A DNA stretch of 64,000 bases from a virus (Duplodnaviria > Heunggongvirae > Uroviricota > Caudoviricetes). Location of the stretch: IMG/VR virus record IMGVR_UViG_3300034102_002177; one strand, written 5' to 3'. Both the position numbers and the translations under genes were made by a program. Shown here piece by piece: positions 5,307-64,000 of this stretch. Under the pieces are notes generated by a model, which made no database searches, was not told where the DNA came from, and saw only the letters and a program-made list of their open reading frames with translations. Each line of letters begins with the position of its first letter. Positions within the stretch are counted from its first letter, which is position 1.

Positions 5307-6431
5307 TTAGATTACATATATTTGTCTTGGCATTGCTCTAAACTTAAGTGACTTATTTAAGTTCTCAGCAATTAATGCTTCTCGTTCCATTACTTTTTCA
5401 GGTTTCAATCTTGTCAATCTACCTTCAGGTCCGATAAGTTCATCAATTAATTTTGTCTTCTCATCTTTTGCTTCAGTTGCCAATGATGTATAATCCATAG
5501 TTAATTCAGAGTCAGGAGTTTTGATGTTTCCACTAAACTTACCTCTTACTCTTGCTAATGTTTCTTTACAATATGCTGTGAACCATCTACGAACCCATAC
5601 TTGAGCAGGATTATTTAGATCTTGCCAAGACATTTGTTGGAATGGAACATCTGATGGCATTTGGATAATATCGGGATTATTTTTTAAACAATCGTCTTTA
5701 TCTTCCTCACAAGCATCATAATACCAATACCACACTCTACCTTTTCTTAAGGTACCGTTACCGAAGTCAAATTTTCCACCCGGTACATTCATTAAGTGTA
5801 TTGCTTTCTTACCATCAGGTAATGCAGTAATTCTATATGTTAAATCCCCTTGAATAATTCTTCTTTGAATGTTAATCTCTTGCATTCTTAATAACATATC
5901 AAACGCTGGCATCATAAAATAACTACCTGCCAAGTTACCCATTTGAGCAAATCCCGCAGGACCAGCTAAACCACCACCGGCAATACCACCAAAAGTCCAT
6001 GGGTCAATTAATGTATTATTTAATTCGGCCGGTGAAAACCATAACAATTCGTTAATTTCCCTACAAGCAGGAATTTCATAAATTTGTTGGTTCTCAACTA
6101 ATTGGATATAATCTTTCTTTAAAACGTAATCCCCTCCGGCTTGTAAACCAACAATCTTGGAGTATGCATATGTATATCTTGTTTCATAGTCCAAACTTTT
6201 TGTAACAAAAGCTTTCGCTAAAGATTGTGTTTCAACATTTAACCCCCAAAGATTAGACCATTGAGATTCAATTAACCAATCTTGGATGTATTGTGAATAA
6301 TCATCAATAGAGAACTCTAACAAAGTATCCATTTGTTCATCCTCTAATTCAACACTACGAAGTGGAGCACCTAATAGGTGACGAATTCTCGTGTATAATT
6401 TACTTCTTTCTGGTTCTGAAATTATTGACAT
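5307..6431 (-). CDS. Neck protein / head-tail adaptor, T4 gp13-like
   Basis: N-terminus RHLLGAPLRSVELEDEQMDTLLEFSIDDY matches the gp13-family LG.P...VE...EQ..D.I pattern; C-terminal WVRRWFTAYCKETLARVRGKF...ELTMD. Confidence 0.8.
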   Translation of the reverse strand: MSIISEPERSKLYTRIRHLLGAPLRSVELEDEQMDTLLEFSIDDYSQYIQDWLIESQWSNLWGLNVETQSLAKAFVTKSLDYETRYTYAYSKIVGLQAGGDYVLKKDYIQLVENQQIYEIPACREINELLWFSPAELNNTLIDPWTFGGIAGGGLAGPAGFAQMGNLAGSYFMMPAFDMLLRMQEINIQRRIIQGDLTYRITALPDGKKAIHLMNVPGGKFDFGNGTLRKGRVWYWYYDACEEDKDDCLKNNPDIIQMPSDVPFQQMSWQDLNNPAQVWVRRWFTAYCKETLARVRGKFSGNIKTPDSELTMDYTSLATEAKDEKTKLIDELIGPEGRLTRLKPEKVMEREALIAENLNKSLKFRAMPRQIYVI

Positions 6432-6451: not shown

Positions 6452-7546
6452 TTATTTTTTAGTTCTCAATAGATATAGCTCATTAACGAATTCCCAATTT
6501 ACGTAATCCCAAAACTTTTTAATGTATTCGTCTCGTTTATTTCTATAACGTAAGTAGTAAGCGTGTTCCCATACATCAAGACCTAACAATGGATATCCCC
6601 CATCTTTAACGACACTCATCATAGGATTGTCTTGGTTTGGTGTTGAGATGACTTTTAATCTTCCTGTTTTAGTAAGAACCAACCATACCCATCCTGAACC
6701 AAATCTATCTTTAGCTGATTGGTTAAATTCGTCCTTCATTTTTTTAATGTTCCCATATTGTTTGGTAATTTTTTCAAATACTTCACCACTTGGTTTCTGT
6801 CTTTTTGGTGACAACATCTTCCAAAACAAAGCGTGATTAAACGCACCACCAGCATTATTTCTTATTGTTGTATTGTATTTACCAATTGATTTAACAATAT
6901 CTTCTAACTCAACATCACCATAATCTTTTTTTGATAAAGCATCGTTTAATTTTTTAACATATCCTTTGTAATGTTTGTTATAGTGAGTGTTCATAGTTTC
7001 AGGATCCACAAACTTATTTAATGCCGAATATGAATAAGGTAATTTATCAATACCAATTTTTTTCATTTCCATTAAGAAATCTTCACGGATGTTTTCTTTT
7101 TCCGCCAATACAAGTTGTTCTGTTATTAAATTAATTTTTTTACCAATACCAATTAAACCTTCATACATTAATTTTTCGTGTTGGGGAAAATCACGTTCAA
7201 ACTTTTTTAGTACTGAACCGGCTTCTGAATTTGCTTCATCTTCATTTGGACCTCCGATATCAGGTCCTCTCTCCATACCTTTGGTTGATCTTTGCCACTC
7301 GTGTACCCATTCGTGAGCCAGTGTTCTACAAACATCTCTATTAATTCTACCTTTAGTTAAAATTTTAAGTTCTGAATTTTCATTTCTACTCCCCGTAGAC
7401 ATACCATCTGTTTTTTCACCTAAAAATAAAACAGTAACATCATTTTTTACGGGATATTTTTTTTGTAAATATTTTAAAAAATCCTCCACCAATTTTTTGT
7501 CCTCTTTGGACATATCGCATTTTATATGTTTAATAGTTACTTTCAT
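6452..7546 (-). CDS. sod: Fusion of an N-terminal HExxH metallopeptidase-like domain and a C-terminal Fe/Mn superoxide dismutase with Mn-type signature
   Basis: SOD motifs LPYSYSAL, TMNTHYNKHYKGY, NNAGGAFNHALFW, FGSGWVWL, PNQDNP and LDVWEHAYY retain all four metal ligands. N-terminal RTLAHEWVHEWQ...EDEAN. Confidence 0.92.
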   Translation of the reverse strand: MKVTIKHIKCDMSKEDKKLVEDFLKYLQKKYPVKNDVTVLFLGEKTDGMSTGSRNENSELKILTKGRINRDVCRTLAHEWVHEWQRSTKGMERGPDIGGPNEDEANSEAGSVLKKFERDFPQHEKLMYEGLIGIGKKINLITEQLVLAEKENIREDFLMEMKKIGIDKLPYSYSALNKFVDPETMNTHYNKHYKGYVKKLNDALSKKDYGDVELEDIVKSIGKYNTTIRNNAGGAFNHALFWKMLSPKRQKPSGEVFEKITKQYGNIKKMKDEFNQSAKDRFGSGWVWLVLTKTGRLKVISTPNQDNPMMSVVKDGGYPLLGLDVWEHAYYLRYRNKRDEYIKKFWDYVNWEFVNELYLLRTKK

Positions 7547-13496: not shown

Positions 13497-16400
13497 ATGG
13501 CTAATAGTAAAGTATTTGTATCACCAGGCGTCTATACTTCTGAAGTAGATTTAAGTTTTGTGGCACAGAGTGTTGGTGTTACAACTTTAGGTATCGCAGG
13601 GGAGACCTTAAAAGGTCCCGCTTTTGAACCAATCTTCATCAGAAATTTTGACGAGTTCCAAACCTATTTTGGTGGAACTACACCTGAAAAATTTGTGAAT
13701 ACACAAATCCCAAAATATGAGGCTGCGTATATCGCAAAATCTTATTTACAACAATCTAATCAATTATTCGTAACGAGAATCTTAGGACTTTCAGGTTATG
13801 ATGCGGGACCATCTTGGTCAATATTAACTACAGCAAACGTAGATTGTTCCACAATCGGAGTTAATTGTTTTAGTTCCGTCACTGTAAACTGTATCCCCCA
13901 ATGTGTTATTCCTTTAGAGTTACCGTTTGTTGTAGATTTCTCAGGATGTACAAACTCAACATCAAGTATAGAATATTTAAGTAATTTCCCAAGTGAAATT
14001 TTGGATATACTTGACGTTAGTTATGAAACTCCTCAAGGAGGTACTTCAACATTGGATGAAAATATTAGAGATTTAATCTTTAATGTAATGACAAGTACAA
14101 ACCCATTAACTGCTGAAGATAATTTAATTAGTTATTTTGGTAGTGTTGATGGAAATGATTATAGTGCTTTAACTGTTAACGGTACTTATACCGCAACAAC
14201 AAACGTATTCGGTGTACCGGCAATACCATTTGATCAAAATAACTTATGTGATGGTGCTAACACATCATGGTACTACGCATTGTTTGATAATAATGGTGGT
14301 GGTAGTTATTCAGGTTTTTCTTTTTGGTCAATTGTTACGGGTATCACAAATATTACTCCAATAACAACAACCACTACAGCTCCAACTACAACATCCACAA
14401 CAACTAATCCTTGTGTTACGCCTGTTCCAACAACAACTACAACGACAACAATTCCTGTTCCTGTTGAATGTTACTCAGGATCTGTAATGGGTGTAATCTA
14501 CTACTATACCGGTACTTCATATACTAATTATGACGATATGGTTGTAGCAACATTTAGATCGAGAGGTATTTCAACATACGTAAATGGTAACAATCCTGTT
14601 TATGAAGTATCTAATTTGAATAATGTGTCTTTAGATATGACAGGTCAATATGCTGGAGTATTACAAAATCCATACTTACCATTTGGTATAAATGTAACAA
14701 ATAATGATGGTGTTAACTTTAATTTTGAAGCGTCATTCTCAACATCAGATGCTGAGTATTTAACAAAAGTATTTGGAACAACTAATTTTGCAAAACCAAG
14801 AACTGTAGTTCCTTTATTTGTTGAGGAAAGATTCCAATCGTTATTAAACTACGGATGGAGAAAAGGTTTCATTAGAGGTTTAAAACCTGTGTTAGTTGAT
14901 TTGGATTCAGCACAAAGTAACGCATCCGATTCAATTGGGTGGTATTTAGATAGATATCAAACTCCAAGCTCTCCTTGGGTTGTATCTGAACTTAGAGGTA
15001 CTAAAGTTTATAACTTATTCAAGTTTTACACTATTGCCGATGGAGATGCTGCTAACTACGAAATTAAGATTTCTATTGGAAACATTTCATTCGCTAATGG
15101 TACTTTTGATGTATTCGTTCGTGATTATTATGATACTGATACTAATCCGGTTGTTGTAGAGAAATTTACAAACTGTAGTATGGATCCAAGTCAAAATAAT
15201 TTTATTGCTAAGAAAGTGGGTACATTAGATGGTGAGTTCCAACTTAATTCTACATACATTATGGTAGAAATGAATGAAGATGCTCCTGTAGATGCTTTAC
15301 CTTGTGGTTTTGAAGGGTTTAACTTTAGAACTTATGGTTCAGCAACTTCACCATTCCCGGTTTATAAAACAAAATATGACTTCCCTGGTGAGGTAATATT
15401 TAACCCACCATTCGCAGCACCAATCCAAAGTCCTGGTGATAATGTTAGAAGAACATACTTAGGTATTTCAAATAATAATAGTTGGGATGGTAATTACTTT
15501 GAATATGTTGGTAAACAAAACCCTATTTCAACTTGTGATCTTGAAGGTGGTGAATGGAATTACAGATCAAGAGGTTTCCACATGGATAAAGACGCATCAG
15601 GTATAACTATTTCAGATGCATTTACAACTTCGGGTACTCCAAGATTTGACGTGGGTGATGCTAATTTCTCATCTGAACCAAATAATCCTACAAACCCTTA
15701 CTATAGAATTTACTCAAGAAAATTCACTTTATTAGTACAAGGTGGTTTTGATGGTTGGGACATTTATAGAGAACACAGAACTAATAGTGATAGATATGTC
15801 TTAGGTAGAATAGGTTACTTGAATGGTGCTTGTCCTGACAATAGATATCCAAACGCAGTTGGTTGGGGAGCATTCAAACAAATCGCAGTTGGGGATGGTA
15901 CTCAAGATTTCGCAAATACTGACTACTACGCATACTTGTTAGGTATTCAAACATTTGCCAATCCTGAAGCGGTTAACATCAATGTATTTGTTTCTCCGGG
16001 TATTGATTACGTTAATAATAGTGATTTAGTTGAGGCAACAATTGATATGATTGAAAACGACAGAGCGGATTCACTTTATATTACAACAACACCTGACTAC
16101 AATTTGTTCTTACCAACAACAACAGGTGGTGATGGTATAATTTACCCTCAAGAAGCGGTTGATAACTTAGAACAAACAGGAATTGACTCTAACTATACCG
16201 CAACTTATTACCCATGGGTATTAACTCGCGACACAGTAAACAATACTCAAATCTACATTCCGGCAACGGCTGAGGTAACAAGAAACTTGGCGTTAACCGA
16301 TAACATTGCTTTCCCATGGTTCGCAGCGGCAGGTTACACAAGAGGTATTGTAAACTCAATCAAAGCACGTAAGAAGTTGACACAAGAAGATAGAGATACT

Positions 16401-16808
16401 CTTTACCAAGGTAGAATTAACCCAATCGCAACCTTCTCTGATGTTGGTACTGTAATTTGGGGTAACAAAACTTTACAAGTTAGAGAATCTGCTCTTGACA
16501 GAATTAACGTAAGAAGATTGTTATTACAAGCTCGTAAATTGATTTCAGCAGTATCTGTAAGATTATTGTTTGATCAAAATGATGAACAAGTAAGACAAGA
16601 TTTCTTGAACTCAGTAAATCCAATATTAGATGCTATCAGAAGAGATAGAGGTTTATATGATTTCCGAGTAACAGTTTCTTCAGATGTAGCTGATTTAGAT
16701 AGAAATCAAATGACAGGTAAAATTTATATTAAACCTACAAGATCCTTAGAATTTATAGATATTACCTTCTATATTACACCTACAGGAGCATCATTTGAGG
16801 ATATTTAA
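13497..16808 (+). CDS. Contractile tail sheath protein (gp18-like) with Cys/Thr-rich insertion
   Basis: VSPGVYTSEVDLS N-terminus; YYPWV, PWFAAAGYTRG, INPI, WGNKTL, DRINVRRLL, IYIKPTRSLEFIDITF C-terminus. Confidence 0.96.
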   Translation: MANSKVFVSPGVYTSEVDLSFVAQSVGVTTLGIAGETLKGPAFEPIFIRNFDEFQTYFGGTTPEKFVNTQIPKYEAAYIAKSYLQQSNQLFVTRILGLSGYDAGPSWSILTTANVDCSTIGVNCFSSVTVNCIPQCVIPLELPFVVDFSGCTNSTSSIEYLSNFPSEILDILDVSYETPQGGTSTLDENIRDLIFNVMTSTNPLTAEDNLISYFGSVDGNDYSALTVNGTYTATTNVFGVPAIPFDQNNLCDGANTSWYYALFDNNGGGSYSGFSFWSIVTGITNITPITTTTTAPTTTSTTTNPCVTPVPTTTTTTTIPVPVECYSGSVMGVIYYYTGTSYTNYDDMVVATFRSRGISTYVNGNNPVYEVSNLNNVSLDMTGQYAGVLQNPYLPFGINVTNNDGVNFNFEASFSTSDAEYLTKVFGTTNFAKPRTVVPLFVEERFQSLLNYGWRKGFIRGLKPVLVDLDSAQSNASDSIGWYLDRYQTPSSPWVVSELRGTKVYNLFKFYTIADGDAANYEIKISIGNISFANGTFDVFVRDYYDTDTNPVVVEKFTNCSMDPSQNNFIAKKVGTLDGEFQLNSTYIMVEMNEDAPVDALPCGFEGFNFRTYGSATSPFPVYKTKYDFPGEVIFNPPFAAPIQSPGDNVRRTYLGISNNNSWDGNYFEYVGKQNPISTCDLEGGEWNYRSRGFHMDKDASGITISDAFTTSGTPRFDVGDANFSSEPNNPTNPYYRIYSRKFTLLVQGGFDGWDIYREHRTNSDRYVLGRIGYLNGACPDNRYPNAVGWGAFKQIAVGDGTQDFANTDYYAYLLGIQTFANPEAVNINVFVSPGIDYVNNSDLVEATIDMIENDRADSLYITTTPDYNLFLPTTTGGDGIIYPQEAVDNLEQTGIDSNYTATYYPWVLTRDTVNNTQIYIPATAEVTRNLALTDNIAFPWFAAAGYTRGIVNSIKARKKLTQEDRDTLYQGRINPIATFSDVGTVIWGNKTLQVRESALDRINVRRLLLQARKLISAVSVRLLFDQNDEQVRQDFLNSVNPILDAIRRDRGLYDFRVTVSSDVADLDRNQMTGKIYIKPTRSLEFIDITFYITPTGASFEDI

Positions 16809-21247: not shown

Positions 21248-24200
21248 ATGCCAGAAAGTGTTTTATCATTTGCATCATCGTCATCTTTTAGAGATACATT
21301 AATTGCTAGGAATTTAGCTCCCTATCAGGTACAAGGAGTATACACTCCCCCACCCGGAAATGTAACATATGAAGTTAGTCCGTTGAATGACAGTAATGTA
21401 ATTGATTCTCCTGACAATTTAATTTCAACAAACCAATTATCAAACAATTTATATCCTCTAAATCAATGGGGTCCTGACGGAGGATTCCAAGGAAAATATA
21501 GTATCGGGAATTTAGTCCCTGTACCGGCAAATGAAGGTCCTTATGACCCAACGGATACAGTTTTAGACCTCATCAATGAATTTTATATTGATGCTGCTTA
21601 CGTTACAAATATATATGGACCCGAAGGTGGGTATAAAGATTTGGTTATTATTACTGATGTACAATTATCAACTCATTATTATTTACCATATTTTGATGGG
21701 GTACCCACTAATTTTATTCCATCAACTTACACACCATACGCTATATTATTCTCAGATAATCCAAGTGGGGATAATGGTACCTTGTCTCAGGATTCATATA
21801 TTGCTAAAACAGGAGCACTTTATTTAAGGGAATATTTTGAAGAAAGAATTGCTCAAGAGTTTTATCAAATTACTTTAGGTAGTGCTAATTTAAGTAGTTT
21901 ACAAGATCCTTTTAGTGCATCAATGCTAGCCACGGGACAACAACCATTCTTTACGAAGAATTGGAAGATTACCGTACCTGAAAATCCATTATTAGCGGCT
22001 GTTAGTTTTGCTAATAGATTAACGGGAACATATTTCCCTGTTTCATTTATCCCTGGTGATTATTTTGATGATCCGGATCCTGTGTATTCACCACAAACTG
22101 AAAATGCATTAAACACCGTTAATAATTTAACGGGAGGTGCTTTAGGTGGTGTGTTGAATAAATTCAGAAATCCTTCAGAGATATTTTTAGCAAATACCGG
22201 TAACGGACAACAATCTGTTTTATTTAAGAGTTTAGAATACAACTTATACAGACCAAATTACGATAAACCACCGCTACAACAATTTACAAGTGCGATATCC
22301 AATTTATTTGGTGTTGGACCTAACGGTGGGGGTGGGTATTATGTTGGTAGTGAAGAAGCGGAACCATCACTTATAACACAACCTGCTAATCAAGTTGCGG
22401 TTAATTATCTTGGGGTACAACAAGGAACATTGGTGTATGGTCCTTCAGAATTAGGAAAACTATTTGAAGGAAACGAAGGTAAGATTAATTTTGGTTTACA
22501 AGCGGAGTCATATTCTAATCAAGGGGGTATAACAGGTAAATTTGTTTGGACATCCCCTAAGTATAAAGAAAATGCCGGATGGAAAGTTGGACCGGGTGGT
22601 GATCCTAAAATTATTGATGGTGAATTTAATGAAATACAAAATTCGTACAATCAAAATTTATCTACTGATATTGAATTTAGAGGAGGGTCAATATTAGATC
22701 AAACCCAAAGAATTATTAATGCTGCTGATAACGTAGGTGGTGCGGCTAGATTAAAACACGCGGGTAATGCGATGAACCAAGTTTCTAAAGTATTCAATGA
22801 TGGATATAAAGAAATGACAAAGGGATCTCAAGTAATTGCTTATTATGATAGTTCAACGGGTGAGGATGTTATTGGGATTGATGGTATAGAAGTTGGTAGA
22901 GAATATTGTCGTGTGTTCCAAAAAGACACACCTTATTTAACATATGCTGACTTACAAAAAACTGATGGTATTACAAAATCAGGTCGTAAATTTAATAATT
23001 CGGTCCTTGATAATACATATAATTTAAACATCGCTCCGATACGAAACCCTGGATCAACAAATATTGTTGATAGTAAAGTTAAGAAATATATGTTCTCCTT
23101 AGAGAATTTAGCGTGGAGAACTTCGGATCAACCTGGTTATACTTATGATGATTTACCGACTTGTGAGAAAGGACCAAATGGTGGTAGAATAATGTGGTTC
23201 CCACCTTATGATATTTCATTTAATGAAGATGTTAGAGCATCTTGGAACCCAACTAAATTTTTGGGTAGACCTGAACCAATATATACTTATGCTAACACAA
23301 CAAGAAGTGGTAGTATAAGTTGGAAGATAGTTGTTGATACACCTTCAGCTATGAATACTATTATTGAGAAACAATTGGCGAATAGACCGGCTAAAGAAGT
23401 TGATTCAATTATTGATTCATTCTTTGCGGGATGTGTTAAATACGACATATATGATTTAGCGGCTAAGTTTAATACTATTCCGACGAGTGAGTTATATACT
23501 TACCAACAATTATTAAATGAACCAAGATTAACTGAGGAAGAGTTGGGTTCAATATATTCTAATATTAGTAAAGATAAGTCAACTAATATTGGTACTAATG
23601 GTAATGGTAATACTGAAGGTGGTGATGGGTCGGAACCCGGTCCTGAAAATGAAGATAATGATACAATTAATACGGATGAAACAGAAAGTGTTGATATAAC
23701 AAGTATTGAAAAGTTTATAGATTATTCATTCTATTTTGATAATGATTATCCTGAAGGGCAATATAGTGAAGCGGTTACCGCGAGTCAACCATATGATTAT
23801 TGGTATAATCAGTATCTTTCAGTAAAAGGAACTAAATATATAACTAACCCACCTGAATATGTATATGTTGGTACTAAAAAGTACGAAAATAAAAGTGTTA
23901 TACAAAAATTCTATAATGATATAATTATTGGGAATTATCAGACAATTCAAACGGATTTTTTAAATAAATTAAAAGAAATTATTGTAGATAAAAATGGTTC
24001 GGTTAAAATAGAATTACAAGGGTCGGCTTCTGCTCCTGCTAAAATTAATTATAATAGAAACCTTTCTAAAAGAAGAATAAATTCGGTAACACAATGGTTT
24101 AGGAATCAAACAATTGGTGATAAAACTATTGCCACTTTAGAAAGTGAAGGTAAAATAACTTTTATTGAAAATTTTAATGGGGAAGAAATAACAATACCAC

Positions 24201-26326
24201 AAAAAGATGGAAGTATATTTGAAGAGGTTGATTGTACAAAAAATATTACGATGACACCAACAGAAAATCCAACATCAGGTGATATTAATAATTCAAGTAT
24301 TGCTCAGTGGTACTCAATACCTGCAATGGCTTGTAGGAGAGTTCGTATTGCAAGAATAGAACCAAGTGTACCTAAACCTCCATCACCACCTCCGGGACCA
24401 CCACCACCTCCATCACCACCTCCAGGACCACCACCACCTCCACCTCCGGGTCCACCATCTCCACCAACACCTCCAACACCTCCTGGTCCAAAACCTGTTA
24501 GAAGACCCGATCCTATTAAAAAAGTTAAAGAAGGAATTTCTAAAAAAATATTAAGATATTTGTTTAGTGAGTGTGATTATTTTGAGGTTATAAAAGAAAC
24601 TAATCCTATGGTATATGATACCATTAAGGAAAAAATAAAATATTTTAGTCCGGCATTTCACTCAACAACACCTGAAGGTTTAAATGCGAGATTAACATTT
24701 TTAAATCAATGTATGAGACCGGGTCAAACAATTCCGGTTATCGGACCTGATGGTAGACCAAAACATAATGATGCGTTAAACACATCATTTGGTGCTCCAC
24801 CTGTATTAGTTTTAAGAATTGGTGACTTTTACCATACTAAAATTATACCTAACAGTATTAGTATCACTTATGATCCGTTAGTGTTTGATATCAACCCTGA
24901 GGGAATCGGAGTACAACCTATGATTGCTAAAGTTAGTTTAGGTTTTGATTTTATTGGTGGTAGTGGATTAGCGGGACCGGTAGAACAACTTCAAAACGCA
25001 TTATCATTTAATTATTATGCTAACACAGAAATCTACGATGAAAGAGCAATTGCAACTGAAGATACTTCAGAAAGAGATGAGAAAATAGTTGGCAAATTAA
25101 TCTCAAATGGGTCCGCACCATTAACTGTTGCACAAATACCAAATGAGGTTTCTAATAGAGGTGGTCAAACGGTTGGTACAATTATAAGTACTAATGCAAA
25201 CGATGATGGAACTATTGAGACAGGTGAGATTGATTATAACAACCTCATCTCTGAATTATCTACAGGGACCAAAGAATTTTTCTCAACTATCTATAATCAA
25301 TTAAAAAGTATAAAAGATGTAAGTAATTATGGTATTTTACAACTTGTTAATTATAAAAGAAAATATTTTGATGGAAATATTAGTGAATTTCAAAACAGTA
25401 CCCCATTAAAAATTTATGGTAAACCTGACAGTGTTGAAAAATTAGTAAAAGATATTGTTGATCAGGCGGTAAAAGATTGTAAAAATGAATTGTCGCCAGT
25501 CCTTAAAGAAATTGTCCAACCACAATCTTTATTTTCTAATGCGCAACAAAGACAAATTAAAAATAAAATGGAAGAAATCTTAGGGACAAGAAATGCTGAA
25601 ATTAATAATGTTATAATTGGACCAATAAATGATTTAACAAGTTATCAAGAAAATTTTAATTATACGTTTAGAAAAACGGATGTTGTTATATCAAAATTTG
25701 ATGGTATTCTTTTGGAAAGCGGTGAACCTAAAGTTTATTCTTTAACTGGTGATAGTGCAACAACGGTTACAACCGCAATATTAGATGTATATACAAACCA
25801 AGTTGGTAAAACAATAACAGAATTCTTTGATGTAATGTCCGCGAATTATATTATGAATAATGGATCGATTGAATATAGTCCTTCCCCCGTAAATCTATGG
25901 AACTTACCGGATAAATGGTTTAAGTCATTTACAACACAAGAAGAACAAAGATTTTATATTGTTATGTCAGACATAATGTTAGATGATAATAAATACAATT
26001 CTTTTATTGAGAGTTTAACATCGTTAGATAAAATAAAACCATATGAAAATTTAGTTAATGATTTAAAGGCTAGGTTTGATTTTTATAAAATTAAATGTAA
26101 ATTACAAAGAGATAATGAAGACAAAATTTTTGCGGATTATGAGGCAAGTCCCGAATATCAAAAGTTCCAAAGTTTTGAAATACTTCCTTTTGAAGCAAAA
26201 GTTGGATATACTACAAATAAAAATGAACCAAACTACGCGACTGGAGTTGATAGAATTAAAAAATTATATTCTAAACAAAATTTAAATAATGATGATAAAT
26301 ACAATGGTAAAGTAAAATTTAATTAA
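21248..26326 (+). CDS. Large baseplate/tail-tube-initiator-like protein with inserted OmpA-like domain and Pro-rich linker
   Basis: Tube-initiator-like segments FPPYDISFNEDVRASW...LGRPEPIYTY...RSGSISW and PPVLVLRIGD...AKVSL flank FYFDND...IELQGSAS...YNRNLSKRRINSV...RRV (OmpA_C pattern). Confidence 0.65.
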   Translation: MPESVLSFASSSSFRDTLIARNLAPYQVQGVYTPPPGNVTYEVSPLNDSNVIDSPDNLISTNQLSNNLYPLNQWGPDGGFQGKYSIGNLVPVPANEGPYDPTDTVLDLINEFYIDAAYVTNIYGPEGGYKDLVIITDVQLSTHYYLPYFDGVPTNFIPSTYTPYAILFSDNPSGDNGTLSQDSYIAKTGALYLREYFEERIAQEFYQITLGSANLSSLQDPFSASMLATGQQPFFTKNWKITVPENPLLAAVSFANRLTGTYFPVSFIPGDYFDDPDPVYSPQTENALNTVNNLTGGALGGVLNKFRNPSEIFLANTGNGQQSVLFKSLEYNLYRPNYDKPPLQQFTSAISNLFGVGPNGGGGYYVGSEEAEPSLITQPANQVAVNYLGVQQGTLVYGPSELGKLFEGNEGKINFGLQAESYSNQGGITGKFVWTSPKYKENAGWKVGPGGDPKIIDGEFNEIQNSYNQNLSTDIEFRGGSILDQTQRIINAADNVGGAARLKHAGNAMNQVSKVFNDGYKEMTKGSQVIAYYDSSTGEDVIGIDGIEVGREYCRVFQKDTPYLTYADLQKTDGITKSGRKFNNSVLDNTYNLNIAPIRNPGSTNIVDSKVKKYMFSLENLAWRTSDQPGYTYDDLPTCEKGPNGGRIMWFPPYDISFNEDVRASWNPTKFLGRPEPIYTYANTTRSGSISWKIVVDTPSAMNTIIEKQLANRPAKEVDSIIDSFFAGCVKYDIYDLAAKFNTIPTSELYTYQQLLNEPRLTEEELGSIYSNISKDKSTNIGTNGNGNTEGGDGSEPGPENEDNDTINTDETESVDITSIEKFIDYSFYFDNDYPEGQYSEAVTASQPYDYWYNQYLSVKGTKYITNPPEYVYVGTKKYENKSVIQKFYNDIIIGNYQTIQTDFLNKLKEIIVDKNGSVKIELQGSASAPAKINYNRNLSKRRINSVTQWFRNQTIGDKTIATLESEGKITFIENFNGEEITIPQKDGSIFEEVDCTKNITMTPTENPTSGDINNSSIAQWYSIPAMACRRVRIARIEPSVPKPPSPPPGPPPPPSPPPGPPPPPPPGPPSPPTPPTPPGPKPVRRPDPIKKVKEGISKKILRYLFSECDYFEVIKETNPMVYDTIKEKIKYFSPAFHSTTPEGLNARLTFLNQCMRPGQTIPVIGPDGRPKHNDALNTSFGAPPVLVLRIGDFYHTKIIPNSISITYDPLVFDINPEGIGVQPMIAKVSLGFDFIGGSGLAGPVEQLQNALSFNYYANTEIYDERAIATEDTSERDEKIVGKLISNGSAPLTVAQIPNEVSNRGGQTVGTIISTNANDDGTIETGEIDYNNLISELSTGTKEFFSTIYNQLKSIKDVSNYGILQLVNYKRKYFDGNISEFQNSTPLKIYGKPDSVEKLVKDIVDQAVKDCKNELSPVLKEIVQPQSLFSNAQQRQIKNKMEEILGTRNAEINNVIIGPINDLTSYQENFNYTFRKTDVVISKFDGILLESGEPKVYSLTGDSATTVTTAILDVYTNQVGKTITEFFDVMSANYIMNNGSIEYSPSPVNLWNLPDKWFKSFTTQEEQRFYIVMSDIMLDDNKYNSFIESLTSLDKIKPYENLVNDLKARFDFYKIKCKLQRDNEDKIFADYEASPEYQKFQSFEILPFEAKVGYTTNKNEPNYATGVDRIKKLYSKQNLNNDDKYNGKVKFN
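24371..24496 (+). repeat. Extensin-like proline-rich coding repeat
   Basis: PKPPSPPPGPPPPPSPPPGPPPPPPPGPPSPPTPPTPPGPKP, including a near-perfect 30-nt DNA duplication. Confidence 0.95.
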
Positions 26327-33432: not shown

Positions 33433-34050
33433 ATGTCAATAGATAAAAAAATACTAGAAGAAATAAAAAGATATAATAACATTAATAAGTATATCTTGGA
33501 ACAAGGTGAATTACCTCCCCCACCGGCTCCGGATCCTGCGGCGGCTGTTGCCCCTGTAAGTCCTGAAGCCGCAATAGCTCCTGAAGCACCCGTACCTCCA
33601 ACAAATACTCCACAACCTGTTGATATTGAAAATGATCCTGATGTTGAAGAGGTGGGTAAGGAAACTGAAGAACTTGACATAACAGATTTAGTTGATACTC
33701 AAAAAACATTTGCTGACAAACAAGAAGAATATTTTAACAATTTATTTGATCAATTAAAAAATCTTGAAACCAAATTAGGTGAAATGGATAATTTAGTTAA
33801 TACGGTAAATAATTTAGAAACAAAAATTGAAAAAATTAGACCAAAAACACCTGAAGAAAAATTAGAACTTAGAAGTTTAGATTCGGGGCCATTTAATCAA
33901 AAACTAAGTGAATTTTTTGATGATAAGATGGATGACATGGAAAAATCAGGAAAAAATGAATATGTTTTAACTACTGATGAAGTTGAAGAATATTCCCCTA
34001 GTGAAATTAAGGGAAGTTTCAACGATTTTGAAGAAGATGAAATGATATAA
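33433..34050 (+). CDS. Acidic, Pro/Ala-rich, coiled-coil protein (scaffold/internal-protein-like)
   Basis: 205 aa with PPPPAPDPAAAVAP linker and heptad-like FDQLKNLETKLGEMDNLVNTVNNLETKIEKI. Confidence 0.6.
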   Translation: MSIDKKILEEIKRYNNINKYILEQGELPPPPAPDPAAAVAPVSPEAAIAPEAPVPPTNTPQPVDIENDPDVEEVGKETEELDITDLVDTQKTFADKQEEYFNNLFDQLKNLETKLGEMDNLVNTVNNLETKIEKIRPKTPEEKLELRSLDSGPFNQKLSEFFDDKMDDMEKSGKNEYVLTTDEVEEYSPSEIKGSFNDFEEDEMI

Positions 34051-58400: not shown

Positions 58401-58514
58401 AACACCGATGATCAAACTATAACTATATATAATAATAACTGTTTACCGTTAGATACTACCCAAAACTTTGAATTAAATGTTGGGATAAACTTTGATATAC
58501 TATGTAATCCGTGA
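55497..58514 (+). CDS. Baseplate/fibre attachment protein containing a P2 gpI / gp7-like segment
   Basis: IPSQLLKNLAQTLGW...FRNLILNSAFLFKSKGTRKSIEILLRMVG matches the tail protein I pattern. Confidence 0.7.
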   Translation: MAVNKYKCPPQPASGQGTFSDNLVGLQLVDGGGLTQANFEFTTNITEKQNRTFSIGSFSDPISLDTLNINSIEESKKLIADNFRVYPNFDLSQVTNFTMFGSLTKRMSTSVSNIINYFPAALDIQSTQPNFVTSLTVQNASYNSVEDETYFEIPISVIRNPFGIDYTVDATRNIELREIPVSYLRNFTTQYLKYSLFLNDVEYPVSDFIPAQPTDTVFKIYVNGNPFLSNTTSSDNFLIRPKQLYVNKVFNENLDQVENFLLNRNMVPIYSAYFQVPIENEDGTYSYGQEVAIFPLIGTWNLDIVSPKFTNYLTKLNTIAEYIDLYKTNLITRFLTADAIKEFDTSDRKMEKVLQIYGRSFDETRKFITALANMNSVNYNVKNDIPSQLLKNLAQTLGWNINISPITNDQLLNAVFSDGSNAFTGLPQGQTPEELNYQYFRNLILNSAFLFKSKGTRKSIEILLRMVGAPEALTEFNEHVYVADQKINLRQFNIQYAQISGGTYSQELPVLDTNDLFSIMGVQYTGFTTTTISQDVSLTINDYPIDSYGFPSMPVPTDTYFFQIGGGWFESTPQHRMPEQVDLTNSVFTGANPNYQTKLLPFNYGQEYLERYRSFPYMNLGFNLRKTVDNKKSWTDNEKYLRKNFDGNFNAYYGVSDDRLVINVKNVDLFMNPAQGLVYDVWSMSRRYNYPIPEQGLFYVDPTYCNPYPNIEYPNRGGIDWTVIVPKPKQKTFFEFAQTFWKNMINVRNRQFMTDGKTSGYPTLSSIYWKYLESEQAINVPNDNFNYQTMIDYVNGMGDYWIRLVEQMIPATTIWNTGVKYENSIFHRQKFVWRRQRGCEIIPVPCKPCKLITQIFSYDCPVQQTVVGLYPWDTNPSITSFGALLGSSLTTYGNDINVDINNDCLLNTLESDWYIDIRIDGTPIIIYEFFNGVGYSNPSLSVPTANDWINGLYDALVGLLDYGLDYIINTDDQTITIYNNNCLPLDTTQNFELNVGINFDILCNP

Positions 58515-61087
58515 GTTGTGGACAAATACTATATAATTTATACATAACCGGCGATTGTACTAATACAAACGTTGGTGAAATCTATGTTGAAATAGCGGGA
58601 GGTGCGTCTCCGTATACTGTTTATGAGGTTACATCAACAGGATTATTACCAACATCCGCGGCAACAACCACATATTATTATAGTGGTCTTTCTGCCGATA
58701 CCTATGTTTTAGCGATACAAGATTCTTGTCTTTCTGGTGCGACTACCGAATATCTTAATATACCAATATCTTCAGGATCAACAATAAGTGTTGAATCGGC
58801 ATTAAATACTACTTGTGGGGTTGATAATGGTGAAATAACTTTTGGATTTACGCCTTTTTATGGTTACGGCACCGGATTATTATATGAAACAACAAATGGT
58901 TATATAACTAGTGGAGCAACATCAACAAGTGGATTAACATTTACAAACTTATCGGGAGGAACTTATTATATAATTGGTGATGATGGTGGTGGTTGTACAG
59001 GATTAAGTGCAAGTGTTGTTATTTTAACATCAACAACTTTAGATTATGGGTTTTATGTTGTTGATGATGCTAGTTGTAATGTTTCCGGTGGATCAGGTAA
59101 AATATTTGTTACGGGTCAAACAGGTGTTGGACCGTACACATATCTTTGGAGTAATGGTCAAACTGGATCAACGGCAACGGGATTAACTGTTGGGTTTTAT
59201 ACCGTTACTGTTACAGATTCAAATGGATGTTCTGTTACAGAGGGGGCATCTGTTAATAATGTACCACCTATAGGAATTGCGTCATTTACAACGACCGGAA
59301 GTACGTGTTTTAATAGTGATGGTGCCGTTGAAGTGACGGTAACTGGTGGAACAGCTCCATTCTTTTTTTCGGGATCTAATGGTGATACGTCAATAACTTT
59401 TTCTAACACTTATACGTTTGATAACCTACCTTCGGGTACTTTAGTAGTTACGGTTAAAGATGCGGGATTATGTAGCGACACTCAATCAATATCGTTAATA
59501 ACACCAAATGGATTTGCGGTATCATCCATAACATCAACAAACTCAAATTGTGGTAATAATGGAACTATAAATATTTTAGTAAACACCGGGTCCCCAACAG
59601 GTACTTTTACTTATACAATATTGGATTCTTCAGGTAATACGGTTAATGCTATTACGGTTGGAACTAATGCTACTTTTAGTAATTTACCTTCAGATACATA
59701 TACAATATTAATAGATAATAATTCGGGTTGTGTTTATACGGGGTCGGCAACTATTACAAATGTTAATTTATTTTCAATAACGGCGTTAACAACTAATACA
59801 ACTTGTGGATTAAATAATGGGTCTATTCAGATATTAACTACGACTGGTGGAACATTACCATATAGTTATCAAATAACAGGATATGCGGTTTCACCTATTA
59901 ATAGTTATAATAACTTACCATCAGGATTTTATACAGTTACTGTCACAGACGCGAATGGATGTTCACAAATTACAACAACATATGTCGGACCATCAAGTTC
60001 TGTATTTTTTAATTTATTAACAATTCAACCTGTTAATGGTAATGATGGTCAAATAATTGCTTTTATTAGTAGTGGTACACCACCATTTACCTATAATTGG
60101 TCCTCAAATGTAAATTTACAAACTGGATCAACTGTGACAAATTTAAGTGCCGGGACATATAGTTTACAAGTTGTGGATAGTTCTGGGTGTACATATAATA
60201 AAACTGTTGTTTTAAGTGGGACAATACTTTTAGGTAATTATCAGGTTTATAACATAAGTGATACTAATTTTGTTAATAGTGGAATTGATGGTAGAAGAGG
60301 TATTGGTCAAATGTATAATGAAGGGTTTTTTGATTTGACAGAAAATGATCTAAATTGTATTGTTAATAGTGGTCAATTTATAATTGAAACAATTGTTAAT
60401 GGAGAGGTTAAACAAAATTTATTTTATACCTCAACAGGAATATATGATTACCCAACAGATACTGAATGGGCTAATATTGTAAAGAGTGTGTTATTATCTT
60501 ACCCCGATATTGGTGAAGTAGATATAGATATTACCAAAAATAAAATAACTATAGTTAATGATTGTAAAGATGTTAACAAAAGTTGTAACCCAACAAAATT
60601 TAACACACTAGCGGATGCTAAAGTCATTATTAATTTAATCATTAATTATGATATTTCTTGTGTACAATGTGACGTTACACCCCCAACTCCAACAATAACA
60701 CCAACACCAACTATTACACCAACAAACACATTAACACCAACTCCAACAATAACTAAAACTCTAACACCAACAGTAACTAAAACTCTAACACCTACTCCAA
60801 CAGTAACTAAAACTCTAACCCCAACAGTAACTAAAACCCCAACTATGACACCAACAAAAAGTGGTGATTTCTCGGTATTTGAGGTAATATATTGTTGTGA
60901 CAGTGTAACTAAAAAATGGGTAATTTTACCAACATCCACATCTCTTGGATCTATTATAATTGGTACAGATAATCAATGTTACGAAGTACAATCATTAGAC
61001 CCTCAATCCCCTAACTTAAGTTGGTCGGGTATAACATTTGTTGGAGATTGTGATGCTTGTATTGCATCTTATAGTTGTAGTGCGTAA
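58511..61087 (+). CDS. SprB-repeat, Thr/Pro-rich, Cys-rich fibre/adhesin-like protein
   Basis: About seven C..DG.I.V...GG..P(Y/F).Y.W...L..G.Y.V.V.D..GC repeats, a (TP)n stalk and a C-terminal Cys module; GTGA overlap. Confidence 0.75.
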   Translation: MSCGQILYNLYITGDCTNTNVGEIYVEIAGGASPYTVYEVTSTGLLPTSAATTTYYYSGLSADTYVLAIQDSCLSGATTEYLNIPISSGSTISVESALNTTCGVDNGEITFGFTPFYGYGTGLLYETTNGYITSGATSTSGLTFTNLSGGTYYIIGDDGGGCTGLSASVVILTSTTLDYGFYVVDDASCNVSGGSGKIFVTGQTGVGPYTYLWSNGQTGSTATGLTVGFYTVTVTDSNGCSVTEGASVNNVPPIGIASFTTTGSTCFNSDGAVEVTVTGGTAPFFFSGSNGDTSITFSNTYTFDNLPSGTLVVTVKDAGLCSDTQSISLITPNGFAVSSITSTNSNCGNNGTINILVNTGSPTGTFTYTILDSSGNTVNAITVGTNATFSNLPSDTYTILIDNNSGCVYTGSATITNVNLFSITALTTNTTCGLNNGSIQILTTTGGTLPYSYQITGYAVSPINSYNNLPSGFYTVTVTDANGCSQITTTYVGPSSSVFFNLLTIQPVNGNDGQIIAFISSGTPPFTYNWSSNVNLQTGSTVTNLSAGTYSLQVVDSSGCTYNKTVVLSGTILLGNYQVYNISDTNFVNSGIDGRRGIGQMYNEGFFDLTENDLNCIVNSGQFIIETIVNGEVKQNLFYTSTGIYDYPTDTEWANIVKSVLLSYPDIGEVDIDITKNKITIVNDCKDVNKSCNPTKFNTLADAKVIINLIINYDISCVQCDVTPPTPTITPTPTITPTNTLTPTPTITKTLTPTVTKTLTPTPTVTKTLTPTVTKTPTMTPTKSGDFSVFEVIYCCDSVTKKWVILPTSTSLGSIIIGTDNQCYEVQSLDPQSPNLSWSGITFVGDCDACIASYSCSA
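60743..60838 (+). repeat. Near-perfect 24-nt tandem repeat encoding PTVTKTLT
   Basis: CCAACA(A/G)TAACTAAAACTCTAAC(A/C) at 60743, 60767 and 60797, with a partial copy at 60821. Confidence 0.95.
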
Positions 61088-61128
61088 AATAAATTCACTT
61101 TATTAAAAAGTTACATATCTTTTATATC

Positions 61129-62109
61129 ATGAAGGATATCATTTTTGTTACTGCCCAACCTGACGTACCATATTTTCATTGGCAAGTAAAACTTTATACT
61201 CATAATTTTATTGAAAAAGGAATTAACCCATGTCAAATTCACGTTATTTTCGGATTAACTAATGGACAAAAAGAACCATCACAAGGGGCTTTAGAATTAT
61301 GTGATTATGGGTTTAATGTACATTTTTATTATGATGAAAGAATTGGTAAAAATTATATCCCAAGTATTAAACCATATTTAATATCAAGATGGTTATATGA
61401 ACATCCCCAATATGGTGAAGTATTTTTCTTACATGATGCCGACATTATTTTTAGGGAATTGCCTGATTTTGATAAATTGATGAAAGATAATGTTTGTTAT
61501 TTATCTGACACCATAGGTTATATTGGATACAATTATATAACCGATTGTTGTGATAGATATGAAAGAGCTCATCCTAAATCAGAAAAAGGTCAATTATTAA
61601 AAGAAATGGCGGATGTTGTTGGTTTGGATGTTGATGTCATAAAAACAAATCAAGAAAGTTCGGGTGGTGGTCAATATTTGTTAAAAAATATGACGTATGA
61701 ACTTTGGGAAAAAATATATTTAGATTGTGTTCCATTATATAAACAAATGCATGATTATCATAAAAGACATCCAATAAGTCCTGGTGAAATACAATTTTGG
61801 ACTGCGGAAATGTGGTCTTTATTATGGAATTTATGGTTACATAATTATGAAACCAAAGTAGTGGATGATTTAAATTTTTCTTGGGCGACAGATGATATAA
61901 AAATCTACGAAGAAAGACCAATTTTACATATGGCTGGAGTTACGGATAATTTGAGAGGTACTAAATTTTATAAGGGTGAATATATAAATGTTGATCCAAT
62001 AGAAAAATTGAAAGAGAATCCATCACATTTTGATTACATTGAAAAGAACAGTACTACAATAAAATATATTGAAGTAATGAAATCATTTATTCAAAAAACA
62101 ATAAATTGA
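61129..62109 (+). CDS. GT-A-fold glycosyltransferase resembling GT95 (HPAT) / GT96 (SGT1) protein O-glycosyltransferases
   Basis: DxD motif in FFLHDADIIF (aa 103-105), plus PYFHWQ, YIPSIKPY..SRWL, GGGQYL and WTAEMW. Confidence 0.7.
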   Translation: MKDIIFVTAQPDVPYFHWQVKLYTHNFIEKGINPCQIHVIFGLTNGQKEPSQGALELCDYGFNVHFYYDERIGKNYIPSIKPYLISRWLYEHPQYGEVFFLHDADIIFRELPDFDKLMKDNVCYLSDTIGYIGYNYITDCCDRYERAHPKSEKGQLLKEMADVVGLDVDVIKTNQESSGGGQYLLKNMTYELWEKIYLDCVPLYKQMHDYHKRHPISPGEIQFWTAEMWSLLWNLWLHNYETKVVDDLNFSWATDDIKIYEERPILHMAGVTDNLRGTKFYKGEYINVDPIEKLKENPSHFDYIEKNSTTIKYIEVMKSFIQKTIN

Positions 62110-62137
62110 TTATTTATATATTAAACAAATAACTTAA

Positions 62138-64000
62138 ATGGCGATAATATATAAGGTAGAAAATATAAACCCGGTTATATACAATAACTTCACATTTGTT
62201 GATGGTAATGGGGTTAGTAAATCAATGGATTTATTACCAAATGTTTCTTATTATATAAATGGTAATAGTGTTGTGTCGCCAGCCGTATTTATTACGGTAC
62301 TTAATTTAGGTAAAGAGGATTTCAGGTATTGTTTTCAAAGTTGTTGTAACGGGGAGATTATTGATTTTGATGGAAGTGATCAATATCCGTTTAGTACTTA
62401 TCAAATTGGTGACACAATATATTTTGATCAGGCGATCTCATCGTCAAATCCTAATAACTATAAAACAGGTTGTTATGAGTTAATAAGTATCGGTAGCGTA
62501 AATACACATTCTTGTAGTGTAAATGGGTCTGAAAATGTTAGTGTTGTTTCTTTTGATAGTACCCCATATAATAGTTGTAATAACTGTATTGTTGATCACA
62601 GTTGTTGTGTAAATTATTTTGTAACTAACCAATCGGCACCAAATGTTAAAACTTCAATTGAATTTACACCTTGTTGTGGTGAAACTAAAAAATCACCATA
62701 TTTTATTCAATACCAAACAGGTATTTCATTATGTAGTTCAAGTGGGATTAAAATTTTAGGTGGGGATGTTCAGGTAATTAATAATGGTGATTGTCCTGAT
62801 TGTCCTGTAATTACAACTACAACAACTGAACCCGTTGTAACAACCACAACAACATTTGCCCCCCCTATCCCACCAATTGAACCAAAAAATGAATGTTCTG
62901 TAATAACTATTTTTCCTCTTGGGGTTGAATGTTTTACCGTGGATCCTACAAGTGCGGATTCTTTTGATGGGGCAATAACTTTAGGAATAACAGGGGGAAC
63001 TCCTCCATATGAAGTTGTTTGGGAAAATGGATCTTTATCTCAATCTTTAAGTAATATTGGTGTGGGGGAATATAGTTCAGTCGTTACTGATTATTATGGT
63101 GATTTTACGGCGTATACCACTTGTATTTTAAGTGCTGAAACACCAATCACCACCACAACAACAACTCAAGAACCTTTACCATCTTATGAAGATATATGTA
63201 TTACAATTATTAGAGGGGATAAACAAACTTCTTTTGTGGAATATTATCAATTTGATTTTAATGGATATATTGGGGATTATCCTACTTGGACAGATATTAC
63301 GGATGGGTTAGATATTGTTTGGAATGAATCAAATAATCAATGGGAAATATCTGGTTGGACTACAGGTCAAATAATTAATACAAATCCTGCCACACCACCA
63401 CTTAGTGGTTGGGATTCTTTAGGGTCAACATTACCAAATAGAATATTATCAATAACTGCGGTTTTAGGGTTATGTCAACTAATAAGTACCCCTAATTTAA
63501 ATATAGTTGTTAATAATCCGGAATGTGGGTGTGATGGAAGTTTGTTATTAACTCCTTTTGGTGGTACACCACCATATACCTATTCAATTAATGGGGGAAG
63601 TACTTACGCACCAACAACAATTTATAATAATTTATGTCAAGGTACTTATGTTGTTTATGTAAGAGATTCTTCAGGATTTACATATACAGAAACTGTGTCT
63701 TTATCTGCTCCAACACTATCCGTTAATTATATTTTAACTATGTCTTATTTACCTGGTAATACATTTGGAGTGAGTATTTCTCCTTCATTACCTATTGGTA
63801 CTACAGTTACTTTTGATGTTATACATCAAAATACGTTTAATGTTGGTCCTTCTCCATCAAGTGCGACTTATAATAATACGGTTACTTTAAATGTTAATGG
63901 TGTTCCAGTTCTTTATACCCCACCACCGGTATTGAATCAACTTTCACCAATACCACAACCATTCCCTTGTCAAGGATCATTCCAATATAATACAACAAAA
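62138..64000 (+). CDS. 3'-truncated Cys-rich, Thr-rich, SprB-repeat fibre-like protein (absent from the ORF track)
   Basis: ATG at 62138 with 621 stop-free codons to the window end (MAIIYKVENINP...QGSFQYNTTK). It has TTTTT tracts, two GGTPPY SprB-type repeats, two shared Cys modules and an upstream TATTTAT at 62111-17. Confidence 0.85.
   Translation, partial: MAIIYKVENINPVIYNNFTFVDGNGVSKSMDLLPNVSYYINGNSVVSPAVFITVLNLGKEDFRYCFQSCCNGEIIDFDGSDQYPFSTYQIGDTIYFDQAISSSNPNNYKTGCYELISIGSVNTHSCSVNGSENVSVVSFDSTPYNSCNNCIVDHSCCVNYFVTNQSAPNVKTSIEFTPCCGETKKSPYFIQYQTGISLCSSSGIKILGGDVQVINNGDCPDCPVITTTTTEPVVTTTTTFAPPIPPIEPKNECSVITIFPLGVECFTVDPTSADSFDGAITLGITGGTPPYEVVWENGSLSQSLSNIGVGEYSSVVTDYYGDFTAYTTCILSAETPITTTTTTQEPLPSYEDICITIIRGDKQTSFVEYYQFDFNGYIGDYPTWTDITDGLDIVWNESNNQWEISGWTTGQIINTNPATPPLSGWDSLGSTLPNRILSITAVLGLCQLISTPNLNIVVNNPECGCDGSLLLTPFGGTPPYTYSINGGSTYAPTTIYNNLCQGTYVVYVRDSSGFTYTETVSLSAPTLSVNYILTMSYLPGNTFGVSISPSLPIGTTVTFDVIHQNTFNVGPSPSSATYNNTVTLNVNGVPVLYTPPPVLNQLSPIPQPFPCQGSFQYNTTK

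Follow-up and report, generated by a model that had tools for sequence, protein, structure and literature searches.

The subject of this report is a 64,000-nucleotide (nt) stretch of DNA from a tailed phage (Caudoviricetes; IMG/VR virus record IMGVR_UViG_3300034102_002177), referred to below as the window, and a 326-amino-acid (aa) glycosyltransferase (GT) encoded within it at positions 61129-62109 (+ strand). This enzyme probably O-glycosylates threonine-rich tracts of the phage's own virion proteins, as judged by comparing its gene and homologs of it across phage genomes, where the gene and tags of poly-threonine (poly-Thr) on neighboring structural proteins are gained and lost together. A first-pass annotation of the window had proposed that the phage O-glycosylates Thr/Ser, or hydroxyproline (Hyp), on its fibers, sheath and baseplate; the comparisons tie the GT to Thr tracts, including those of the sheath and of the fiber encoded just downstream, they do not support the Hyp branch, and it is from them that we infer the glycosylation itself.

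Co-occurrence of the glycosyltransferase gene and poly-Thr tags

Siphophage tail-tube homologs from loci with and without the GT gene provide natural experiments on this association, and three unrelated tail-tube families were compared in this way. Within the phiFL1-type set (27 loci, tail tubes 65-100% identical), tail tube and capsid both end in poly-Thr at all 12 GT-carrying loci, and these two are the sole open reading frames (ORFs) per locus with a run of at least five Thr. None of the 15 loci lacking the GT has a tail-tube tag or any ORF with such a run, and all 13 of their capsids that fall within the locus are untagged, with short non-Thr C-termini. Among phiCTP1-type loci, tags are present in 5/5 that carry the GT, and the eight tail tubes from loci without it all end at '..EELP', precisely where the tagged tail tubes go on into the tag. 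Loci of the VPE25 type follow the same pattern, with four GT-carrying loci tagged and one GT-less locus untagged. When the three families are pooled, 21 loci have both GT and tag, 24 have neither and none has one alone (Fisher 2.6e-13), a p-value that overstates independence in that the counts include near-identical loci and amount to about 10 effective groups. On a capsid tree of the phiFL1-type loci, the GT-positive members form three groups interleaved with GT-negative ones, and the best estimate is three changes (bootstrap 2-4).

The position of the gene in these phages also places it among virion genes. In five siphophage lineages it sits within the head-tail operon, directly 3' of the tail-tube gene in phiFL1A, Staphylococcus phage SA2 and Clostridium phage phiCTP1, and directly 3' of a presumed capsid gene in R3.3 and VPE25. 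All seven cultured phages inspected have poly-Thr tracts on adjoining or nearby virion proteins; mostly these tracts close the tail-tube and/or capsid sequence at its C-terminus, and in the Chryseobacterium phage they are internal. The main text of a proteomics paper on VPE25 does not mention the GT gene.

Thr runs were also seen on proteins other than the tail tube and capsid. In SA2, an 88-aa ORF composed almost entirely of Thr runs (locus L085, 5661-5924) lies in a different frame across the 3' end of the tail-tube gene, and may represent a frameshift extension that gives some subunits a longer poly-Thr tail. Phages of the phiCTP1 type (L086, 2206-2604; L219, 6857-7267 and 2079-3680) and Bacillaceae prophage-like loci (L282-L312) have Thr runs on a protein of ~105-137 aa encoded between scaffold and capsid genes and at times on a protein of ~530 aa. 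A single phage can thus have at least three candidate acceptors.

The window itself belongs to a jumbo lineage, for which 80 related loci (57-87% identity) come from contigs of up to 318 kb. At 49 of 66 distinct related loci, an ORF with a run of at least five Thr lies at most two genes from the GT. Such runs occur in 74 of 244 ORFs (30%) within two genes of the GT, in 19 of 348 (5.5%) farther away, and in 0 of 107 ORFs at ten related loci without a GT within 10 kb. The first-pass annotation had expected the GT to co-occur with fibers rich in Thr-Pro (TP) repeats; the enzyme does track a Thr-based feature, namely runs of at least five Thr, and TP-type linkers turned out to be present in related loci without a GT too. 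TP repeats were thus set aside as a specific acceptor, for they occur without the GT whereas the longer Thr runs do not.

The tail sheath illustrates this association within a single protein. Four GT-holding relatives (L195-L198; sheaths 69-95% identical) have a poly-Thr/Pro linker in the sheath, as the window does, and the sheaths of four fragments of 107-144 kb in which no GT was found (L203-L206; 72-77% identical) have at the same site a folded, Ig-like-looking insert that is ~100-200 aa longer than the linker and has no run of five Thr. Because these ranges of sheath identity overlap (69-95% vs 72-77%), the GT-holding relatives are not simply closer kin of the window.

Within the window, whose G+C content is 31.8% and which encodes a contractile-tail module (sheath, recognized via PHROG 23, and baseplate wedge) together with replication genes, just 2 of 39 ORFs contain a run of at least five Thr: the sheath and the fiber directly downstream of the GT. 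The GT gene and the structural genes and tracts discussed here are as follows.

61129-62109, + strand: GT gene, 326 aa, ATG start, PHROG 4417; predicted soluble GT-A glycosyltransferase with DxD at residues 103-105, H267-x-x-G270 and K282
13497-16808, + strand: sheath gene, by PHROG 23 assignment
14355-14471, + strand: poly-Thr/Pro linker of the sheath, with T5, TTTSTTT and T7 in an insert of ~40 aa (T5/T7 span 14355-14462); candidate acceptor
62138-64000, + strand: downstream SprB-repeat fiber-like protein, directly 3' of the GT gene and leaving the window at its end
62813 (T5), 62840 (T5) and 63149 (T6), start positions, + strand: Thr runs of the downstream fiber, between Cys-containing modules; candidate acceptor
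58511-61087, + strand: upstream SprB-repeat fiber-like protein, directly 5' of the GT gene
60674-60855, + strand: TP(x) linker of the upstream fiber; possible acceptor, less specifically supported
2-2062, + strand: ORF whose 5' end is open, containing long TP repeats
674-895, 1430-1477 and 1685-1870, + strand: TP repeats of this first ORF
21248-26326, + strand: ORF of 1692 aa that holds a Pro-rich tract
24371-24496, + strand: this Pro-rich tract (SPPPGPPPPP type); not supported as an acceptor

The placement of the GT between two fiber-like genes, as first annotated, was borne out, and both neighbors contain SprB repeats, which are typical of Bacteroidota surface adhesins. The Thr/Ser/Pro tracts listed in the first-pass annotation were likewise found at their sites, with the correction that the tract at 33508-33615 is rich in Pro and Ala and not in Thr. 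Mixed Thr codons (ACA, ACT, ACC and ACG) encode the tracts of the sheath and the downstream fiber, which are therefore more than simple repeats of DNA. Read in reverse, the TP-repeat DNA yields a GVGV-rich antisense ORF of 97 aa (60646-60939, - strand), almost certainly not a gene.

Metatranscriptome contigs from two lake/freshwater RNA runs cover the region 58500-64000 in short pieces (60681-60747 and 62200-62557) that lie in the flanking fiber genes only, a coverage compatible with both expression and silence of the GT. Eighteen lake-water metagenome runs with separate study codes from 2020-2024 each contain the interval 60600-62600 nearly complete (83-98% of the words sampled); six of these runs are possible sources of the DNA, and one campaign may account for some of the other 12. 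It therefore appears that this phage recurs in lake water.

Homologs in bacterial genomes extend the comparison beyond isolated phages. Among species-representative genomes, with neighbors scored within 3 kb, 31 of 41 loci with a single-domain copy have an ORF with a run of at least five Thr. These single-domain loci are mostly prophage-like in Bacillota, where the Thr-run ORFs are typically ~400, 105 and 210 aa long and the run lies 1-16 residues from the C-terminus, or are phage-like contigs binned with Bacteroidota, where the Thr-run ORFs are large and (A/V)PTTTTTT linkers recur in their products. The GT on contig L233 (5.3 kb, binned as Candidatus Woesearchaeota) is 69% identical to that of the window and has an APTTTTTT-repeat protein beside it; the contig most likely comes from a phage and was wrongly binned. 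Genomes of Chitinophaga, Pedobacter, Mucilaginibacter, Sphingobacterium, Elizabethkingia and Acidimicrobiia contain multi-domain relatives (L236-L246, L253-L255, L259-L263 and others; 450-1377 aa), as a rule without poly-Thr neighbors.

It is important to point out several observations that, along with the redundancy of the pooled siphophage loci, weigh against a role of the GT in modifying poly-Thr tracts. The well-supported branches of the capsid tree, taken alone, are compatible with a single origin in the phiFL1 group. In the Lactobacillus myophage Iacchus, the GT adjoins recombinase and sigma-factor genes and not head or tail genes, although a small Thr-rich ORF is also adjacent there. 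No GT was found in five fragments (78-144 kb) related to the window, records that are only 27-49% complete, and 10 of the 41 single-domain genomic copies have no neighbor with a run of five Thr within 3 kb. Multi-domain chromosomal copies, in Chitinophaga, Pedobacter and Acidimicrobiia, have a Thr-run neighbor in only 3 of 39 cases, which confines the poly-Thr link to the phage-type single-domain subfamily as opposed to the family at large. Finally, a literature search returned nothing on the enzyme family, on poly-Thr tags paired with a phage GT or on HPAT-like phage enzymes.

The same multi-domain cellular relatives, lacking poly-Thr neighbors, are what might be expected if the GT acted on a target outside the virion, with the poly-Thr tracts being unrelated linkers. 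DNA glucosylation and serotype conversion are the most familiar roles of phage GTs (reviewed in PMC12619734), and the enzyme could modify phage DNA (glycosylated hydroxymethyl bases) or a glycan of the host envelope. Polysaccharide GTs (WbbM and LgtC-like GT8 enzymes) are among its structural neighbors, and the promoter-like element of its gene, described below, is unlike that of the late genes. However, such a reading does not account for a perfect fit between the presence or absence of the GT and that of Thr tags in three unrelated tail-tube families, nor for the location of the gene inside head-tail operons of small temperate phages; in addition, the protein model contains no membrane segment and the closest named folds act on peptides. 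We consider a non-virion target unlikely, including the variant in which a host glycan is altered for superinfection exclusion or receptor masking.

Fold, family and conserved residues of the enzyme

The 326-aa protein is, with very high confidence in the predicted fold, a GT-A glycosyltransferase. Sequence searches alone say little of its function: scans against Pfam and NCBIfam gave no match, a search of Protein Data Bank (PDB) chains gave a chance match alone (E 0.17), and a BFVD search returned uncharacterized homologs only. The protein matches PHROG 4417, a family of unassigned function, with an E-value of 3e-70 (residues 6-319 against 3-290 of the 293-position profile). The family is large, with 1335 homologs at E ≤ 0.001 in a collection of 5.8 billion proteins, all without names, and its relatives form 826 clusters at 50% identity. 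By tblastn (E ≤ 1e-5), homologs with 33-38% identity, every one annotated as hypothetical, were found in 77 sequenced phages with Lactobacillus, Enterococcus, Staphylococcus, Lactococcus, Clostridium and Chryseobacterium as hosts.

An AlphaFold2 model built on a family alignment of 58 sequences (relatives 30-95% identical) has a predicted local distance difference test score (pLDDT) of 97 and a predicted template-modeling score (pTM) of 0.93. The model is a single Rossmann-like alpha/beta/alpha domain, and its catalytic fold begins at about residue 4-5. Foldseek matched the model to 349 PDB chains at E ≤ 0.001, and among the 50 matches listed all are GT-A enzymes, including WbbM, UGGT (GT24), glycogenin and XXYLT1 (GT8), GTA/GTB (GT6) and LARGE1, with query template-modeling (TM) scores of ~0.38-0.45. 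Among Swiss-Prot models the top match is the Arabidopsis peptidyl-serine alpha-galactosyltransferase SGT1 of family GT96 (E 2.8e-11, TM 0.61, 15% identity), followed by the GT95 hydroxyproline O-arabinosyltransferases (HPATs) RDN1/2, PLENTY, HPAT1-3 and NOD3 (TM 0.53-0.62, root-mean-square deviation (rmsd) ~5 A) and, below these plant enzymes, by GT8 galactinol synthases and UGGT (TM 0.41-0.49). Three unnamed family members lead the matches to fold clusters of the AlphaFold Database (TM 0.80-0.94), and the named matches that come later are mostly 'Hydroxyproline O-arabinosyltransferase-like domain' proteins.

These results agree with the first-pass annotation in placing plant GT96 and GT95 enzymes first among named predicted folds, ahead of GT8 and GT24, and qualify its proposal of a GT95/GT96-like transferase, since the likeness is one of fold and does not extend to membership in GT95 by sequence. 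The Pfam HPAT family PF23452 (GT95) gave no match to the window GT at E ≤ 10; it matches 3 of the 58 relatives weakly (best E 1.3e-4) and is the sole Pfam family to match more than one of them. Searching five GT-carrying phage records with PF23452 gave no match, and control genomes were equally silent.

The plant enzymes share their fold with the phage GT across residues 4-324 of the latter and, like it, are GT-A enzymes with a DxD motif, at an identity of only 12-16%. The fold match begins at residues 41-66 of the plant proteins (394 in Arabidopsis SGT1), whereas the phage GT has no N-terminal membrane anchor of the type II (Golgi) kind expected for GT95 and GT96. The HPATs of plants and algae (GT95) and SGT1 (GT96) act on hydroxyls that lie, next to prolines, in peptide repeats of structural proteins. 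The acceptors of HPAT and SGT1 are Hyp or Ser-Pro4, and that of the phage GT is likely to be Thr in poly-Thr runs.

Retaining GT8 and GT24 enzymes (glycogenin, XXYLT1, galactinol synthase and UGGT) have in common with the phage GT the GT-A fold, the DxD motif and a C-terminal position of the His-x-x-Gly type, with a Foldseek probability of 1.0; they differ in giving TM scores of 0.38-0.49 and rmsd values of 8-12 A, and the Pfam family Glyco_transf_8 (GT8) has no match to the window GT. Several of these enzymes also have protein acceptors: a Tyr of the enzyme itself for glycogenin, glycoproteins for UGGT and O-glucosylated epidermal growth factor repeats for XXYLT1.

Conservation within the family is consistent with catalysis. 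D105, H267, G270 and K282 are invariant over the 58 relatives, D103 is conserved in at least 90% of them, and W18, Y76, W224, M228 and W229 are further conserved positions. The HDAD motif of the first-pass annotation occupies residues 102-105, and the motifs aligned there with those of the plant families (PYFHWQ, Y76..IKPY..RWL, DAD and WTAEMW) are all present and coincide with conserved positions of the alignment. The DxD motif is presumed to bind a metal, and its combination with a C-terminal His and Lys has what we take to be the arrangement of retaining GT8-type enzymes. In longer relatives (cluster representatives of 586-1369 aa from metagenome proteins), the domain is fused to PF11397, O-FucT, GT6, GT7C or GT2 domains, PF11397 being the polypeptide/Skp1 N-acetylglucosamine-transferase family.

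Co-occurrence alone does not prove catalysis, so one could imagine a GT-like fold that transfers no sugar and instead binds or chaperones poly-Thr proteins, or recognizes tags glycosylated by the host. The (near-)invariance of DxD, His-x-x-Gly and Lys down to 30% identity is what would be expected of an active GT-A enzyme, and the fusion partners of the domain are other catalytic GT domains; we therefore regard a non-catalytic role as very unlikely.

A proposed mechanism, its sugar supply and the upstream element

From the fold, its conserved residues and the joint gain and loss of gene and tag, a scheme can be proposed that covers catalysis, the acceptor residue (Thr), the donor and the advantage to the virion. 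The GT would be a cytoplasmic, metal-dependent GT-A enzyme that uses a nucleotide-sugar of host or phage as donor and O-glycosylates threonines in the poly-Thr tracts of structural proteins before or during assembly. Its likely acceptors in the window would be the sheath, through its poly-Thr insert, and the fiber encoded just downstream, through its poly-Thr linkers, with the TP linkers of the neighboring fibers as possible extra acceptors. The virion would thereby gain stalks and surfaces that are mucin-like and coated with glycans, and may benefit from stiffening, protease resistance, shielding or adhesion. We give an even chance to the broader proposal that the single-domain GT and poly-Thr constitute a self-contained, horizontally mobile 'mucin tag and writer' cassette with which Bacillota and Bacteroidota phages O-glycosylate their capsids, tail tubes, sheaths and fibers, and that the enzyme belongs to a new GT family that is a prokaryotic/viral sister of GT95/GT96.

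In an extensin-type alternative, raised by the first-pass annotation, Pro residues in SPPPP or TP sequences would be hydroxylated and the GT would arabinosylate or galactosylate Hyp or Ser in the manner of HPAT and SGT1. The fold nearest to GT95/GT96, the weak HPAT matches in 3 of the 58 relatives, and the long Pro-rich tract and TP repeats of the window all fit this proposal. Related IMG/VR records were searched for a hydroxylase and for sugar genes. The prolyl hydroxylase family PF13640, the only 2-oxoglutarate-dependent oxygenase family searched, was not found in two relatives of 290 kb (G006 and G007; 99% and 97% complete) or in two large fragments, and controls were positive. In addition, the acceptor-like feature common to the lineages is pure poly-Thr, often free of proline, and small phages such as phiFL1A have the GT and no obvious hydroxylase. 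The SPPPP tract shows no comparative link to the GT, and the suggestion that the tube-initiator-like protein (24371-24496) provides an extensin-like substrate is not upheld, given the lack of PF13640 in the near-complete relatives. We judge Hyp-directed activity to be extremely unlikely.

The search for nucleoside diphosphate (NDP)-sugar genes, in turn, gave a positive result. The near-complete relatives encode an RmlB-type NDP-sugar 4,6-dehydratase (305-310 bits, below the equivalog cut-off), and in the closest relative, G009, the RmlB-like gene adjoins one for a GlnII-like glutamine synthetase (L207, G009:124948-127725). In G006 and G007, two gene clusters together hold five or more genes of the GT2 type. 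A second locus among these sugar-related genes is as follows.

G006:120354-124061: relative-genome locus L209

The lineage thus invests in glycan synthesis, but nothing ties these genes to the 326-aa GT. In genome size, glutamine synthetase, multiple GTs and Bacteroidota signals, it resembles the moraphages (PMC12619734).

The region directly upstream of the GT gene contains a bipartite element that sets it apart from many other genes of the window.

61094-61123, + strand: bipartite, promoter-like element TTCACTTT-N19-TATCTTTT, ending 5 nt before the ATG of the GT gene
5307-6431 and 6452-7546, - strand: features with TATTTAT upstream
11198, 13497, 17826, 19353, 21248, 37848, 45121, 54589 and 62138: further positions with TATTTAT upstream

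The motif TTCACTTT-N(~19)-TAnnTTTT occurs once in the window and recurs 5' of the GT in ~27 of 61 distinct upstream regions (counted by eye) whose surrounding sequence is variable, the element-bearing relatives including L007, L010, L013, L014, L016, L018 and L019. The TTCACTTT/TATCTTTT pair resembles the -33/-7 promoter type of Bacteroidota, and the element may be a host-type (Bacteroidota-like) promoter for the GT. The mRNA would be nearly leaderless because the element ends 5 nt before the ATG. TATTTAT, found ~15-30 nt 5' of many other start codons of the window, is a candidate promoter for middle or late genes of the phage. The first-pass annotation had assigned the GT its own host-type element in place of the late motif; an element unlike TATTTAT is indeed present, and 61116-61123 reads TATCTTTT and not TATCTTTA, one base off. 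Transcription from a host-type promoter of its own would have the enzyme ready before the late proteins appear.

Relation to known glycosylation systems and implications

To our knowledge, virion glycosylation by phage-encoded enzymes has so far been documented in mycobacteriophages, where it reportedly changes antibody recognition. The adjacency of GT and structural genes that is a trait of phage virion glycosylation systems is also seen here, with fiber genes flanking the GT of the window and homologs following tail-tube or capsid genes. In the mycobacteriophage system, as summarized in PMC12619734, phage-encoded GTs glycosylate the C-termini of capsid and tail-tube subunits (Freeman et al., 2023, Cell Host Microbe 31:1216). 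Phage GTs that decorate virion proteins are thus a kind of system already known, and the siphophage homologs described above likewise adjoin capsid and tail-tube genes and have C-terminal tags. So far as that summary goes, the two differ in hosts, tags and enzymes, the present system being found in phages of Bacillota and Bacteroidota with poly-Thr tags and another enzyme family, and none of the 77 phage records with a tblastn match (E ≤ 1e-5) is from a Mycobacterium phage. They also differ in the site of modification, the mycobacteriophage tags being C-terminal whereas the candidate acceptors of this myophage are internal linkers of the sheath and fibers. Chloroviruses offer a functional analogy in that their own enzymes, which belong to other families and act in other compartments, glycosylate their own capsid (for a review, see PMC7019647). 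Eukaryotic mucin-type O-glycosylation is also a functional analogy only, with dense O-glycans on Thr/Ser/Pro tracts produced by other enzyme families in other compartments. What sets the present system apart is its enzyme family with a GT95/GT96-like fold, an acceptor-like tag as simple as poly-Thr, its distribution across phages of both Bacillota and Bacteroidota and, in this myophage, the sheath and fibers as likely targets.

If the proposed activity is correct, virion glycosylation would be widespread, given 1335 homologs, 826 clusters at 50% identity, 77 sequenced phages and abundant lake-water jumbo phages, and would cover phages of Enterococcus, Staphylococcus and Lactobacillus that are relevant to therapy and dairy. 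The acceptor tag would be simple and readable from sequence, and would give a meaning to stretches of poly-Thr that at present pass for low-complexity linkers. Such modification would also bear on phage immunogenicity and stability, and the compact pair of enzyme and tag could be of use in glyco-engineering. Several carriers of the GT have been cultured, so direct testing is possible. The proposed activity would also broaden the evolutionary context of the glycosyltransferases that modify plant extensins.

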